Source: Escherichia phage PC3. Taken from it: DNA of 64,000 bases. A program made the position numbers and the translations under genes. The stretch is taken from sequence record ON184125; one strand, written 5' to 3'. The notes under the pieces were generated by a model, which was not told the origin of the DNA, searched no databases, and worked only from the letters and a program-made list of their open reading frames with translations. The stretch's first letter is position 1. The number at the start of each line of letters is the position of its first letter. This document shows, piece after piece, positions 49,249 through 52,756 of the stretch.

Positions 49249-49562
49249 GACAATACTCCTTTCAGAGCTAAAACGGAAAGCACACCAATAATCAACCATG
49301 TCGGGATAATCGGCTTGCAGTTCATGTGGGTTTCTCCACCTTCGATGTTTGGACTTCCTTGTATAAGAACGTGTTCACAGGAAGCTCTGAACGTCATTAC
49401 ACAGCCCATCAACACAATCGGCCTGATATAATAACCCGTTTTAGTTTGCTTCACGATACATGGAGAGGAGAAGCGCAGATATGGATCCCCTTTCCGGTAG
49501 CCTGTGATTGTGACCTTCTGCACTTCAGAAGGCACCTTTTGGCCAGGAAAATAAATTTTCAT
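49245..49562 (-). CDS. hypothetical protein
   Basis: 105 aa, ATGA-coupled. Confidence 0.5.
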
Positions 49563-50119
49563 ATTTCAATCCCCAGATTGGTGTATAACAACTCAGACAG
49601 GGTTACAGGACGCTTGAATTGTTCCCAACTACAGTTCAGGTATTCACGTTCTTCACGCATTTCACTGTGAAGATGACCATGGATATTATACGCCCAGCGG
49701 TCCAATTGATAAGGAACGTGAGTGGTCAGCACACGACCAACCGGAGTATCACGCTCATACATCGCACCAAAGGAGCTAATCCATCCCTCTTGATACAGCT
49801 GCATCAACATCTTGAATCTGTCATGGTTGCCTTGCGCCACCCTGATGATAAAGTTCGGTCGCCAGTCATCGGGAACCGGGCGGCGCTTGAACTCATCAAT
49901 ATTCCTCTTGGCACCCTCGCGCATCAGGCGAATGAACCCCTCAGCCCCGATGAAGCAGATGTCCCCAGCCAGTTCAAGGACGTCTCGGGACTTCAGCCCC
50001 TGAAAGATACTGTCGATAACTGCAGCATCATGCGCCTCTTGGGTATCGAACCCACGGGGCTTGAAGACCTTCTTGTGTCCGAGGTGGGTGTCGCCCAGAT
50101 ATTTTACAATTCCTGCCAT
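49559..50119 (-). CDS. calcineurin-like metallophosphoesterase
   Basis: About 186 aa; GDTHLG, GNHD and HGHLH metal-binding motifs; start at Met 7 (TAATG coupling) or 50137. Confidence 0.7.
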
Positions 50120-50547
50120 TATGGTCTCCTCAACCATTCTAAAATCGATACGTTCACAAACCCCTTATGCCAGCGATGGGGTTTATGGCCTCTGTTGTGT
50201 TCGAGCAAACACGTGTCCGGTGGGACACTGAAGTGGATGCCGTCGATGTCGTAGTAATGCCCATCAATCAGAGTATACACATGACCTTCGGTCTGACTGT
50301 AATGGATCTCTGCTTGGGGATACACGTGCTTCAGAAGTAGAGCAACCTGGTAACACTTCCCGTTCTTCCCCACGTACTCGACATCCACCTGTTGTGGAAA
50401 CACATCTTTGACAAGGTTTATCAATCTCGTGATGTCATTTACAACAACCGAACGTTTCATATCGCCTCTCCCGAGGATTCGTTGGTGAACCAATGATACT
50501 CTATCCCGGATATAGAAAAGCCCCTCACGGGGCTTGATCGTCTTCAT
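50119..50547 (-). CDS. hypothetical protein
   Basis: 142 aa. Confidence 0.5.
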
Positions 50548-50827
50548 CAGGGAATATACGCCATCGACTTATTCCATACCACTCACCGATAGAGTTCCAT
50601 GTCCTTTCCCCAGGCCAGCCACCGACCGTGTAGTAATGCGCTACCAGCCGCCAGTAAGGAAGAGAGGCCATGTTCACGCCGCCGTCGGCCTTTAGGCAGG
50701 CCAAGTACCAATTCGTGAGACTGAACGCCTGAAATAACGGATGAAGGAACATGAAGTATAGGTAGCCCAATATGGCTGCGAACACCCCAGCTATTACGAT
50801 AGCGCCAATAACTGTGAAGAATATCAT
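50525..50827 (-). CDS. small membrane protein
   Basis: 100 aa with N-terminal TM segments. Confidence 0.5.
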   Translation of the reverse strand: MIFFTVIGAIVIAGVFAAILGYLYFMFLHPLFQAFSLTNWYLACLKADGGVNMASLPYWRLVAHYYTVGGWPGERTWNSIGEWYGISRWRIFPDEDDQAP

Positions 50828-51456
50828 TCTTTCACCTCCAGCCCCATCAGATCTTCCATGGTCTTCTGAATACGCAGCCAGTCAAGCGCAGCGTCATAAC
50901 GAGGGTCATGATAGACCATACCTTCCAGTTCCCAAGCCTTGATGCCAGCGTAGCGATCCTGTTGACCAACACCCTTCAGCCAGCTCACGATGTCGAAGGT
51001 GTGGTGGTAGTCCCAAGGTTCGTTGGAGTCCTGCTTACATGTCACCTCAATGATGTGCTGAGCCTTGCGCAGATCGAACAAGTTACGGTCACACCAGTCA
51101 ACCGAGCGCGGGTCTACCCCAAGACGATGACAACCCTTGCGGATTTCATCGGCCAGCTGGAAGATAGAGATGTCCTGCTCAGTCGGGTACAGACTGACGG
51201 CGCGAGCCGCATCACACGGGTTGCGCTTGCCCGTGCCCAGCCACCATTCAACTGTCCCAGCGTCCTTCACGCGACCAAGTTCGAGCTGCTCTTTGACATT
51301 CAGCTTAATGAACGTCGTGCGCTCCTCAACCAGCTGCTGAAGAGTATAACGCTTGGTCAGGTCAGCGATGGTGTGCGCCCAGGACAACATGACTGCATCA
51401 TCCCAGCGCCCCAGGGTTTCGCTGTCGGCAACTGCAAGGAAATTAGACTTGTACAT
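50824..51456 (-). CDS. 3'-5' exonuclease (DexA-like, tentative)
   Basis: 210 aa; N-terminal AVADSETLG resembles DEDD exonuclease motif I. Confidence 0.45.
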   Translation of the reverse strand: MYKSNFLAVADSETLGRWDDAVMLSWAHTIADLTKRYTLQQLVEERTTFIKLNVKEQLELGRVKDAGTVEWWLGTGKRNPCDAARAVSLYPTEQDISIFQLADEIRKGCHRLGVDPRSVDWCDRNLFDLRKAQHIIEVTCKQDSNEPWDYHHTFDIVSWLKGVGQQDRYAGIKAWELEGMVYHDPRYDAALDWLRIQKTMEDLMGLEVKE

Positions 51457-52056
51457 TTACGCCTCCTCGTCGATGATTTCTTGCTCATCTTCGACAATCA
51501 TGATACCTTCTGTGTCCAGATGAGAAAGTTCCATCAGATCATCATCGAATCCGTCTCCTTCCCTGATATAGAAGACTGGGACGACACGACGGCGGGTCTC
51601 TTCATACACGCTTTCAGAGATTCGATTGATATGGCGCACTACACTGTAGAGGTTCAGGCCACCAATGCCACAGCCGATAGCAGGCAGGCCGACATAGACA
51701 GTTTCGTCTTTAGTTGCTTCCACAATTTCATGCACCTGCTCAAACAGGGTCTGAACAGAACTGATGACTGACGGCATTCGAGCGTTCGGACCTGGATAAA
51801 ACTGAGTGTAGAGGTTCGCGCCCCAAACGCCCTTGCTGTGGTCAAATGCATAGGACATACCACCCAGGCGTTGCTCTGGACCACGAGGGTCGTTAGCATC
51901 GACTTCACGCAGGGCTGGGAAGTTGTTACCGATGTGCAGGGCAATACCCGCGCCCATGGTAGACCAACAGTTGGCACCGTGGGCAAAGATGTCGATCAGA
52001 TTGAAGCTACAGGCGGCTTTCAGTAGATCGCCACCATTGATTACATATGTGGTCAT
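51457..52056 (-). CDS. macro domain protein (ADP-ribose binding/hydrolase fold)
   Basis: About 199 aa from Met 6 (ATGA coupling); YVINGGDLLKAA...IDIFAHGANCWSTMGAGIA matches the macro-domain N-terminal signature. Confidence 0.65.
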   Translation of the reverse strand: MTTYVINGGDLLKAACSFNLIDIFAHGANCWSTMGAGIALHIGNNFPALREVDANDPRGPEQRLGGMSYAFDHSKGVWGANLYTQFYPGPNARMPSVISSVQTLFEQVHEIVEATKDETVYVGLPAIGCGIGGLNLYSVVRHINRISESVYEETRRRVVPVFYIREGDGFDDDLMELSHLDTEGIMIVEDEQEIIDEEA

Positions 52057-52295
52057 GCGTACTGTCTCCATTCAATAATGCTGTTGTCAACACATGACAC
52101 CTGGATGATGCCTGTGCGGTGGTGATAATCAGTCATCTGCATGATAAAGTTGTTCCCATTGCGGATAATGGTGTTGACAACGATACCCTTGGCAGCAAGG
52201 CGTATTACAATGGCAGTGCAAAGGCGGTCCATGTAACCGGACACAGAACCTGGTTCGAAGCATCGCTCGAACAGATTTTCAAATTCTGGGCTCAT
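52053..52295 (-). CDS. hypothetical protein
   Basis: 80 aa. Confidence 0.45.
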   Translation of the reverse strand: MSPEFENLFERCFEPGSVSGYMDRLCTAIVIRLAAKGIVVNTIIRNGNNFIMQMTDYHHRTGIIQVSCVDNSIIEWRQYA

Positions 52296-52320
52296 TTGAT
52301 GTTACCAAACAAGAGGTCGA

Positions 52321-52343
52321 GGCGGTAATAATACCGCCTTTTT
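52321..52343. other. hairpin followed by T-run on plus strand inside a minus-strand operon
   Basis: GGCGGTA-ataa-TACCGCC then TTTTTCTTC. Confidence 0.5.
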
Positions 52344-52345
52344 CT

Positions 52346-52756
52346 TCAATAGAGGTCTTCGGAAAAGAGTTCGCGGAAAGGGGTTGTCTTCAGGCGCACC
52401 TGATTGATCTGTCCAGCTTCACGGGCTACGATGCACGCCTCTTCACGAGTGAGGAAGTTGCCCTGGTTGTCGATGAATCCCTGTTCGCGGGTATGGGTGG
52501 ATTTAATGACGCCTGCTTCTTTCAGGATCTTGAGCTGGCTGTTCATGAATCGGCTGTGGTGACGGTCAGCAACGACGATTACATCACCATATTTGTTGGC
52601 GGCAGCGACCACACGGCGCTCCCAGGCACCTTCGACAGGAAGGTCACGGGTGTACAATGGAATCATCGTATCACCGATGTCATCCCCCTTCACCTGTGAG
52701 AACAACTTGCCTTCAGTGCCCGTTGGGAGTTCACGAAAATATCCCAGTAATTTCAT
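52346..52756 (-). CDS. hypothetical protein
   Basis: 136 aa, first complete gene of the minus-strand accessory operon. Confidence 0.6.
   Translation of the reverse strand: MKLLGYFRELPTGTEGKLFSQVKGDDIGDTMIPLYTRDLPVEGAWERRVVAAANKYGDVIVVADRHHSRFMNSQLKILKEAGVIKSTHTREQGFIDNQGNFLTREEACIVAREAGQINQVRLKTTPFRELFSEDLY

Follow-up and report, generated by a model that had tools for sequence, protein, structure and literature searches.

An orphan macrodomain gene of the Tk.4/AdfM family, with a glutamine-type active site, in an Ackermannviridae coliphage

Proteins of the Tk.4/AdfM family have been annotated for years as Tk.4, A1pp phosphatase, or macro domain, and their anti-DarTG2 role was published in 2025-2026 (preprint 10.1101/2025.11.20.689424; PMC13309987). 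In T4, tk.4 was the single significant hit of a HIDEN-SEQ screen on a DarTG2 host, and its knock-out rendered the phage DarTG2-sensitive; the gene was named adfM (anti-DarT factor Macrodomain) on purely genetic evidence from a preprint (preprint 10.1101/2025.11.20.689424). Biochemical data exist for the AdfM of PhiKZ (gp104), which strips ADP-ribose from DarT2-modified DNA in vitro and rescues DarT2 toxicity, and whose N23A mutant is impaired (PMC13309987). [quoted passage not shown] Our literature search returned no paper tying Ackermannviridae to DarTG or macro domains.

We analyzed a 64,000-nucleotide stretch of DNA (the window) from an Ackermannviridae coliphage, Escherichia phage PH4. An earlier note, made from the sequence alone, had placed a macro-domain protein at positions 51457..52056, and exactly this interval is occupied by one minus-strand CDS, with 199 codons and a TAA stop. 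The peptide quoted there, YVINGGDLLKAA...IDIFAHGANCWSTMGAGIA, corresponds to residues 4-39 of the 199-aa protein. The gene and its immediate surroundings are laid out as follows.

51457..52056, minus strand: Tk.4/AdfM-type macrodomain CDS, 199 aa plus TAA stop (ORF, phrog_335, T4 Tk.4 match, AlphaFold2)
52053..52295, minus strand: upstream DUF7234 gene, 80 aa, function unassigned (PF23881, E 7.7e-41)
52053..52056, minus strand: ATGA overlap of the macrodomain start codon and the upstream DUF7234 stop codon (sequence)
51454..51468, minus strand: GAGGAGG-CG-TAA-ATG junction (sequence)
50824..51456, minus strand: downstream DexA-like 3'-5' exonuclease gene, 210 aa (phrog_255, E 1.8e-53)

The mechanical ORF of the macrodomain gene starts 15 nt further upstream, at 52071. 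We prefer the ATG at 52056, because it overlaps the upstream TGA (ATGA, 52053-52056), has GGAG 9 nt ahead of it, and yields the 199 aa and 600 nt found in close homologues and in the annotated Ag3 orthologue. At the other end of the gene, the macrodomain stop directly abuts the exonuclease ATG (TAAATG, 51454-51459), and a Shine-Dalgarno-like GAGGAGG lies at 51462-51468, within the 3' end of the macrodomain gene. The junction thus has the layout that suggests translational coupling to a DexA-like exonuclease, as had been claimed; the coupling itself is a reading of this layout. T4 DexA matches the exonuclease gene with a tblastn E value of 3e-7 over 217 aa, and the adjacency of the macrodomain and exonuclease genes is kept in Agtrevirus Ag3 and Taipeivirus FKP14, where the DUF7234 position upstream is also occupied. 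We treat the exonuclease as a neighbor, a position that does not imply joint action with the macrodomain protein.

Besides DUF7234 and the exonuclease, the neighborhood comprises an Arn.3-like gene and topoisomerase II. Hairpins at 52319-52340 and 50518-50535 flank the four-gene block, neither of them convincing as a coding-strand terminator. A promoter scan gave 11 promoter-like sites against 11.7 expected, which is the chance level and leaves the proposed assignment to an early operon neither strengthened nor weakened. The suggested positional equivalence to the T4 mod genes did not hold and was rejected on T4 gene positions: modA and modB lie about 3 kb, or five genes, upstream of dexA, and tk.4 is about 52 kb from that place, between tk and vs. 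A PADLOC scan of six neighboring genes gave zero matches, and no DarT was found in the flanks of the macrodomain gene. Being phage-borne and having no DarT partner among its neighbors, the gene is an orphan.

Membership in the Tk.4/AdfM family was assessed by several comparisons. BLASTP aligned the 199-aa protein with T4 Tk.4 at 33% identity (E 1e-15), and hhalign covered Tk.4 residues 2-153 with a probability of 99.9% (E 3.6e-34). The window protein (E 1e-63) and T4 Tk.4 (E 1e-65) both fall into phrog_335, of which PhiKZ gp104 is also a member. When Tk.4 was searched by tblastn against the 155,895-bp PH4 genome, the macrodomain gene was the sole match, and the Ag3 orthologue is annotated as "Tk.4 protein". 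Homologues are present in 2,679 of 50,697 phage records (about 5%). Distant homologues are found in phage gene arrays of replication or early type, without an adjacent DarT. An antitoxin origin was considered by checking three distant homologue contexts for a linked DarT; none was found, and all were phage-like. By sequence, then, the protein is a Tk.4/AdfM family macrodomain, a new member of a known anti-defense family and no new system. The counter-defense idea put forward earlier is supported by what has been found for T4 Tk.4 and PhiKZ gp104, yet it is already known for the family; given the long-standing annotation and the 2025-2026 publications, its novelty had been overrated.

Sequence profiles and a structure model place the protein in the TARG1/DarG class of macrodomains, and divide it as follows.

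51559..52056, minus strand: macrodomain core, residues 1-166 (alignments with Tk.4, DarG, TARG1 and SCO6735; Foldseek)
51457..51558, minus strand: acidic C-terminal extension, residues 167-199 plus stop (beyond the end of Tk.4 in hhalign)

The core can be aligned from end to end with residues 2-153 of T4 Tk.4 and with the macrodomains of DarG, TARG1, and SCO6735. The macro-domain signature that had been read in the N-terminus is weak from the single sequence and unambiguous by profile, by PHROG 335, and by structure. As a single sequence, the protein scored 16.4 bits against the Pfam Macro model PF01661 (cut-off 22, E 0.009), with a match confined to the model's C-terminal third. PF01661 is present in more distant homologues, and the family profile matches solved macrodomains strongly; we therefore attribute the miss to divergence rather than to a missing domain. 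A single-sequence phmmer search of the PDB was likewise marginal (E 0.027), with an alignment shifted at the catalytic position. Single-sequence searches being too weak, profile searches were needed for PDB matches. The family profile found the DarG macrodomains 5m3i (E 1.5e-16) and 5m31 (E 1.8e-15), followed by SCO6735 (5e3b, E 5.2e-13), TARG1 (E 1.7e-12), and Poa1p (E 3.6e-10), with MacroD/Af1521-type and viral nsP3 macrodomains at E values of at least 0.05. Matches to curated families were to DarG models only (NCBIfam NF048014, E 2.4e-8; PADLOC DarG, E 2.4e-7), both confined to the macrodomain part.

The AlphaFold2 model of the 199-aa protein (pLDDT 96.1, pTM 0.92) has the alpha/beta/alpha three-layer architecture of a macro fold and agrees with this placement. 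Foldseek returned 202 PDB matches with E values of 0.001 or below, the best being TARG1 (E 8e-9, TM 0.80 on target), Poa1p (E 1.3e-8), and DarG, all with a probability of 1.00, a value that nsP3 macrodomains also reached. The comparison with DarG, MacroD, and Af1521 that the earlier note had called for thus gives a predicted macrodomain of the TARG1/DarG class, with MacroD/Af1521 a poor match to the family profile.

The presence of Poa1p, the yeast ADP-ribose-1''-phosphate phosphatase, among the best structural matches and in the profile search bears on another reading, in which the protein would be a small-molecule enzyme, either an ADP-ribose-1''-phosphate phosphatase or an O-acetyl-ADP-ribose deacetylase, acting on NAD-derived metabolites or signals. 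T4 tk.4 is indeed annotated as "phosphatase; contains A1pp phosphatase motif", PHROG 335 is labeled "phosphatase", and some metagenomic homologues are auto-named O-acetyl-ADP-ribose deacetylase, but such labels are transferred domain annotations. The poor match to MacroD/Af1521 types and the missing Asp of the MacroD motif (N29-x6-AGIA) also argue against a metabolite substrate, as does the DarTG2-specific phenotype of the T4 homologue (preprint 10.1101/2025.11.20.689424). Nothing links the family to Thoeris or to other NAD-derived signals, and the degradation of such signals, offered earlier as an alternative, finds no support. Taken together, we regard a small-molecule enzyme as quite improbable.

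The active site was compared residue by residue with those of characterized macrodomains, and two motifs were mapped onto the DNA.

51970..51981, minus strand: HGANC motif codons, His26-Gly27-Ala28-Asn29 (alignment, conservation)
51802..51807, minus strand: NLYTQ motif codons, Thr84-Gln85 (codons read; invariant in 44 of 44)

His26, Gly27, and Asn29 are invariant in 44 homologues with identities down to 28%, as are Thr84 and Gln85 (44/44). Two glycine-rich loops, MGAGIA (34-39) and PAIGCGIGG (125-133), are predicted to bind the ADP-ribose and its diphosphate; they correspond to the loops of DarG, TARG1, and SCO6735 in the alignments and are nearly invariant in the same set of homologues. His26 and Asn29 are the equivalents of SCO6735 His24 and Asn27, and Asn29 also corresponds to Asn23 of PhiKZ AdfM. 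In HMMER, MAFFT, and hhalign alignments, the TQ pair falls on the TK of DarG, TARG1, and PhiKZ gp104 and on the GQ of SCO6735, so that Gln85 aligns with DarG Lys80, TARG1 Lys84, and SCO6735 Gln85. Compared with DarG and TARG1, the loop after Gln85 has 4-5 additional residues. The protein therefore carries the features of the SCO6735 type, namely the equivalents of His24, Asn27, and Gln85 together with the extended loop. It has Gln85 in place of the catalytic lysine of DarG (Lys80 in Taq DarG), and Gln85/Gly132 in place of the TARG1 dyad Lys84/Asp125. Macrodomains of the MacroD/YmdB/Af1521 type have the catalytic motif Asn-x6-Gly-Gly-[VLI]-Asp; the corresponding segment here, N29-CWSTMG-AGIA, has no Asp. 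As far as residues can tell, the active site has the SCO6735 configuration, not the lysine type of DarG and TARG1. By the same alignments, the phage AdfM proteins comprise two active-site types: T4 Tk.4 and the members from Ackermannviridae have, like SCO6735, the Gln type, and PhiKZ gp104 has, like DarG, the Lys type.

We consider it likely that the product of this orphan gene is an ADP-ribosyl glycohydrolase, a macrodomain enzyme of the Tk.4/AdfM family that undoes the DNA modification made by DarT2. In the mechanism we propose, DarT2 of a host DarTG2 system would ADP-ribosylate thymidines in single-stranded phage DNA and block its replication. The macrodomain enzyme would grip the ADP-ribose with its two glycine-rich loops, and the distal ribose would be held in place by Gln85. 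An activated water molecule would then hydrolyze the ribose-thymine bond, restoring replicable DNA. Catalysis is favored by the family-wide invariance of the active-site residues; like the fold, the family membership, and the lack of a DarT partner and of a DarG C-terminal domain, this conservation was shown by the present analysis. We infer the substrate, dT-ADP-ribose in DNA, and the anti-DarTG2 phenotype from the homologues. The earlier proposal of a macrodomain ADP-ribosyl hydrolase as a candidate counter-defense factor against DarTG is supported by the fold class and the Tk.4/AdfM homology. Other observations weigh in the opposite direction: the identity to T4 Tk.4 is only 33%, and PhiKZ AdfM, the biochemically tested member, is of the lysine type and distant (hhalign E 3.7e-13).

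SCO6735 and TARG1 act on proteins as well, so that sequence does not reveal the range of substrates. The enzyme might be a broader ADP-ribose eraser, acting on proteins or RNA modified by other host toxins or defenses, or on marks set by phage enzymes, with DNA as one substrate among others or a minor one. Its closest structural match, TARG1, is a protein and DNA ADP-ribosyl hydrolase; SCO6735, with the same His/Asn/Gln set, hydrolyzes both as well (PMC9411070); and the wide distribution of the family in unrelated large phages would fit a general role. However, tk.4 was the sole significant HIDEN-SEQ hit on the DarTG2 host (preprint 10.1101/2025.11.20.689424). Moreover, T4 Alt, ModA, ModB, 30.3/AdfN, and 61.2/AdfA gave nothing at E < 0.1 against the whole PH4 genome (tblastn, which is insensitive for divergent families), and the lack of an Alt, ModA, or ModB homologue at this threshold leaves no evident phage ADP-ribosyltransferase to reverse. 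We judge a broader eraser to be rather unlikely and retain DarT2-modified DNA as the probable substrate.

The C-terminal extension is strongly acidic, with 15 Asp/Glu and a single Arg in residues 165-199. It was modeled by AlphaFold2 as helix-strand-helix (H171-177, E185-188, H191-198) with a pLDDT of 94-96. Acidic tails of 31-43 residues occur in the 12 homologues that are closest in the alignment (window protein, P0001-P0029) and belong to the Ackermannviridae group, and the model of the Serratia phage phiMAM1 protein aligns over its full length (TMq 0.85). The pI of the full-length protein is 4.5, which is unusual for a DNA-directed enzyme and counts against such a function; that of the core alone is 5.9, equal to that of T4 Tk.4. 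A conserved hydrophobic pattern in the tail suggests that it packs against the core as part of the structure and is not a free mimic.

Such a tail, conserved in the Ackermannviridae and confidently modeled, raises the question of whether DarT is neutralized mainly without catalysis, through toxin binding and use of the extension as an ssDNA mimic. There are precedents: the DarG C-terminal domain and ICP1 Gp145 (AdfB) bind the DNA site of DarT and inhibit it (PMC11481870), and the macrodomains of SCO6735, DarG, and TARG1 keep their ability to inhibit DarT, by interaction, when they are catalytically inactive (PMC9411070). On the other hand, the active site is invariant family-wide, which argues for catalysis, T4 Tk.4 protects against DarTG2 without any tail, and the hydrophobic pattern suggests a core-packed element. 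A mainly noncatalytic mode of action therefore appears highly improbable. An unlikely but less remote variant is that the Ackermannviridae proteins are two-function AdfMs, combining a Gln-type macrodomain eraser of thymidine-linked and possibly also protein-linked ADP-ribose with a tail that has a second role. The tail might inhibit DarT via ssDNA mimicry, as do the DarG C-terminal domain and ICP1 AdfB, or it might dock onto replisome or single-strand-binding proteins of the phage and so let the enzyme act at the fork.

Ackermannviridae are widely considered for biocontrol or therapy of E. coli, Salmonella, Klebsiella, and Dickeya. The proposed function would extend the AdfM anti-DarTG2 family to these phages and predicts that they resist DarTG2; it would also supply a name based on function for a gene listed in most records as "hypothetical protein" or "phosphatase". 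The division into Gln and Lys types bears on the mechanism and on the choice of inactivating mutations, and opens no new question.

Among known systems, human TARG1 (C6orf130; 4J5R/4J5S) is the top Foldseek match and has the AH...MGAGIA and PRIGCG motifs in common with the window protein, but differs from it in having Lys84/Asp125 where Gln85/Gly132 are found here. SCO6735 (5E3B) is a free-standing ALC1/TARG1-like macrodomain with the matching residue set (H24/N27/Q85 there, H26/N29/Q85 here) and, like the phage protein, a longer loop after the Gln. In contrast, it is a cellular actinobacterial protein without an acidic tail, it has Val25 in place of Gly27, and its similarity (E 5.2e-13) is below that of DarG. 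DarG of DarTG2 (Thermus aquaticus 5M31/5M3E; M. tuberculosis 5M3I) belongs to the same macrodomain class, gives the best PDB profile matches, and presumably has the same substrate, thymidine-linked ADP-ribose on ssDNA. It differs in that the phage protein reaches only 33.7 bits against the NF048014 equivalog cut-off of 250 (model positions 6-135 of 338), lacks the C-terminal DarT-binding domain and an adjoining darT, and has Gln85 for Lys80. The "antitoxin mimic" ICP1 Gp145 was set aside as a relative, as it mimics the DarG C-terminal domain and not the macrodomain (PMC11481870).

The two phage systems are orphan genes, like the one described here. PhiKZ gp104, the AdfM of chimalliviruses, is an orphan anti-DarT2 factor of phrog_335 and has the Asn of xxNxxxxMGxG (N23 there, N29 here), but it is distant (hhalign E 3.7e-13, tblastn E 0.002). 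Like DarG, it has the lysine-type active site (FPTK), and it has neither His26 nor the extended loop that follows the catalytic position. It is imported into the phage nucleus, a structure not known from Ackermannviridae. T4 Tk.4 differs from the window protein in length (155 aa against 199 aa), in lacking the structured acidic extension of about 33 residues, and in position, lying between tk and vs rather than beside the dexA and topoisomerase genes. The two nevertheless have in common the motifs HGxNC, MGxG[IV]A, NLYTQFxPGPN, and PxIGxGIG, with Gln at the position of the DarG lysine, and both are orphan genes of large lytic coliphages of the order Pantevenvirales.

The coordinates that the earlier note had assigned to a macrodomain gene, 51457..52056, coincide precisely with one minus-strand CDS. 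Over the surrounding 2.5 kb the sequence matches Escherichia phage PH4 (ON184126.1; Ackermannviridae, subfamily Aglimvirinae) at 100% identity, and other members of the Agtrevirus group of Ackermannviridae at 89-98%. The mechanical ORF begins 15 nt farther upstream than the ATG at 52056. Three features make this ATG the better start: its overlap with the preceding gene's stop codon (ATGA), a GGAG lying 9 nt ahead, and a product of 199 aa, in agreement with close homologues and with the phage Ag3 annotation of a 600-nt CDS. The gene is part of an extended run of minus-strand genes. Ahead of it in the direction of transcription are topoisomerase II subunits, small ORFs, an Arn.3-like gene and a DUF7234 gene; after it come genes for a DexA-like exonuclease, a small membrane protein, a YunG-like protein, a phosphoesterase and, farther on, a dCMP deaminase.

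Features around the macrodomain gene
52346..52756, minus strand, T4 Arn.3 homologue (phrog_839, E 1e-50; Ag3 orthologue annotated Arn.3), two genes upstream of the macrodomain gene
52319..52340, GC-rich hairpin
52053..52295, minus strand, DUF7234 protein (PF23881, E 8e-41), ATGA overlap with the macrodomain gene
51457..52056, minus strand, macrodomain gene, 199 codons plus TAA
50518..50535, GC-rich hairpin
50119..50547, minus strand, Phage_YunG-like protein (PF24591, E 2e-42), downstream of the macrodomain gene
49559..50137, minus strand, calcineurin-like phosphoesterase (phrog_547, E 6e-44; weak PdeM-like NCBIfam match), four genes downstream of the macrodomain gene

The exonuclease neighbour was borne out by tblastn against the PH4 genome, where T4 DexA matched the gene directly downstream (E 3e-7). 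The macrodomain stop abuts the ATG of that gene (TAAATG), and a GAGGAGG lies within the macrodomain gene's 3' end; the arrangement termed translational coupling is thus present in the sequence, and from it we infer the coupling itself. The suggestion that the gene sits where T4 carries its mod genes failed as a statement of equivalent position: in T4, modA and modB are upstream of dexA but beyond five other genes (dexA.1, dexA.2, dda, dda.1 and srd), and tk.4 is about 52 kb from that region. Using tblastn, we detected no homologues of T4-type Alt, ModA, ModB, AdfN or AdfA in PH4. Promoter-like sites occurred only at chance frequency.

The order DUF7234-macrodomain-exonuclease recurs in Agtrevirus Ag3 and Taipeivirus FKP14. 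Neither this order nor the DUF7234-macrodomain pairing was found around distant homologues, whose neighbours are DNA polymerase, ligase, helicase, homing endonuclease and rIIB genes, and no DarT was present in the contexts inspected. With the Arn.3 homologue and the macrodomain gene, several homologues of T4 accessory genes cluster between the topoisomerase and dCMP deaminase genes. A conserved phage phosphoesterase has been reported to enable evasion of bacterial immunity (PMC12287305, 2025). The two hairpins flank the block running from DUF7234 to the small membrane protein; the one at 52319..52340 occupies the sole sizeable intergenic gap (50 nt) and is followed on the coding strand by only a weak T-rich stretch.

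Elsewhere in PH4, the DNA polymerase is annotated as two CDS:

PH4 record 139130-140758 (L012 11130..12758), DNA polymerase, first CDS
PH4 record 141161-142594 (L012 13161..14594), DNA polymerase, second CDS

The gap of about 400 nt between them, compared with the single 3,180-nt CDS of Taipeivirus FKP14 (L009 41022..44201), suggests an intron- or intein-type interruption, or a frameshift.

Taken from the single protein sequence, the macrodomain assignment would be borderline: Pfam Macro scored 16.4 bits (cut-off 22), and the best PDB match was the M. tuberculosis DarG macrodomain (E 0.027). A family profile built on an alignment of 44 homologues matched DarG macrodomains (E 1.5e-16 and 1.8e-15), SCO6735 (E 5.2e-13), TARG1 (E 1.7e-12) and Poa1p (E 3.6e-10), and reached E values of at least 0.05 at best with MacroD/Af1521-type and viral nsP3 macrodomains. 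The AlphaFold2 model had a mean pLDDT of 96.1 and a pTM of 0.92, and its best Foldseek matches in the PDB were TARG1, Poa1p and DarG (each probability 1.00). Profile and structure, together with the exact CDS, therefore confirm the macrodomain observation. The only curated-family matches were DarG models (NCBIfam NF048014, E 2.4e-8; PADLOC DarG, E 2.4e-7), both confined to the macrodomain part. With 33.7 bits, far short of the 250 bits required of an equivalog, the protein is not itself a DarG, although its macrodomain belongs to the ALC1/TARG1/DarG class.

Within PHROGs, the protein falls in phrog_335 (E 1e-63), as do T4 Tk.4 (E 1e-65) and PhiKZ gp104 (E 8e-43). It shares 33% identity with Tk.4 in direct comparison (E 1e-15); hhalign of the family alignment against Tk.4 covered Tk.4 residues 2-153 (probability 99.9%, E 3.6e-34), and in tblastn of Tk.4 against the reassembled PH4 genome (155,895 bp) the macrodomain gene was the sole match (E 1e-12). 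The Ag3 orthologue is annotated "Tk.4 protein", and "Macro domain-containing protein" is the UniProt name of the relatives in two Ackermannviridae, Erwinia phage phiEa2809 and Serratia phage phiMAM1. Homologues were found by tblastn in 2,679 of 50,697 phage records, including T4-like, rV5-like, Felixounavirus, Pseudomonas and Vibrio phages. phrog_335 is labelled "phosphatase", and T4 tk.4 is annotated "phosphatase; contains A1pp phosphatase motif"; we regard a small-molecule phosphatase or deacetylase as very unlikely. In Salmonella phage bering (Kuttervirus), the only matching protein is 103 aa long (BFVD A0A6G9LAL9) and covers half of the macrodomain protein at 74% identity (100 columns); some members of the family may carry a truncated or split gene. 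On the phage-like metagenomic contig of another homologue, P0052, a Tad2-like gene (PF11195, anti-Thoeris sponge family) follows the macrodomain gene about 2 kb downstream, so anti-defence genes may co-localise there.

DarT2 targets thymidine, and the DarG2 macrodomain undoes the modification; T4 lacking AdfA and AdfN remains DarTG2-resistant (PMC11825919). In a 2025 preprint, T4 was subjected to transposon sequencing with a DarTG2 host; tk.4 was the only significant hit, a clean tk.4 deletion rendered T4 sensitive to DarTG2, and the gene was named adfM, for anti-DarT factor Macrodomain (10.1101/2025.11.20.689424). A 2026 paper independently gave the name AdfM to PhiKZ gp104, which removed ADP-ribose from a DarT2-modified oligonucleotide and rescued DarT2 toxicity, the N23A mutant being impaired (PMC13309987). 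Homology to these experimentally characterised proteins supports the counter-defence idea with DarTG as target and, for the same reason, the idea is not new. The core of the earlier interpretation is supported; its peripheral claims, the mod position among them, are weak. We found no paper linking Ackermannviridae with DarTG or macro domains in the literature searched, and a 2024 review of the family mentions neither. The protein is probably a Tk.4/AdfM-family ADP-ribosyl glycohydrolase, an orphan macrodomain that would take off the ADP-ribose added by DarT2 to thymidines of phage DNA. A broader eraser, acting on protein or RNA, seems rather unlikely.

The hhalign match to Tk.4 stops at residue 166, leaving residues 167-199 as an extension, for which the model (pLDDT 94-96) predicts a helix at 171-177, a strand at 185-188 and a second helix at 191-198. 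From residue 165 onward there are 15 Asp/Glu and one Arg; the pI is 4.5 for the full-length protein and 5.9 for both the core alone (residues 1-166) and Tk.4. In the alignment, the 12 closest homologues, all of the Ackermannviridae group, carry acidic tails of 31-43 residues with a common hydrophobic pattern, F-x2-[DE]-[LIV]-x2-L ... [IV]-x-[IV]-[VL], and the model of the phiMAM1 protein can be superposed from end to end (TMq 0.85). Homologues divide by charge: most of the short ones (145-165 aa), which come from other phage-like contigs, have a basic pI of 8.4-9.5, some with Lys-rich C-termini, whereas Ackermannviridae versions are acidic (pI 4.3-4.8) owing to the added tail. The DarG C-terminal domain and ICP1 Gp145 bind DarT by DNA mimicry (PMC11481870), and by analogy the tail could possibly do likewise. 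Macrodomains with dead catalysis still inhibit DarT through interaction (PMC9411070); DarT binding without catalysis as the main mode here strikes us as very improbable. This Ackermannviridae-specific extension is perhaps useful to specialists.

For the preferred glycohydrolase, HMMER profile alignments, MAFFT and hhalign concurred on the catalytic position. N81-L-Y-T-Q85, with NLYTQ also present in Tk.4, aligns with NFPTK of DarG (Lys80), YLITK of TARG1 (Lys84), MFPTK of PhiKZ gp104 and NMIGQ of SCO6735. Gln85 thus replaces the catalytic lysine of DarG and TARG1, and Gly132 stands at TARG1 Asp125, whereas His26 and Asn29 correspond to His24 and Asn27 of SCO6735, with which the protein also shares a loop after the Gln that exceeds those of DarG and TARG1 by 4-5 residues. 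All 44 homologues, down to 28% identity, keep H26, G27, N29, T84, Q85 and the glycine loops unchanged. SCO6735 has been shown to release ADP-ribose from thymidine in DNA and to rescue DarT toxicity. Its activity is lost in the Q85A and Q85E mutants and almost lost in N27S, and in the proposed mechanism Gln85 positions the distal ribose while a backbone-held water is the proton donor (PMC9411070). The aligned Gln85, His26/Asn29 and longer loop suggest that the best mechanistic model for this protein and Tk.4 would be SCO6735-like, not DarG-like. PhiKZ gp104, which also bears the AdfM name, belongs to the lysine type, and the division of AdfM proteins into Gln-type and Lys-type may be of use to specialists.
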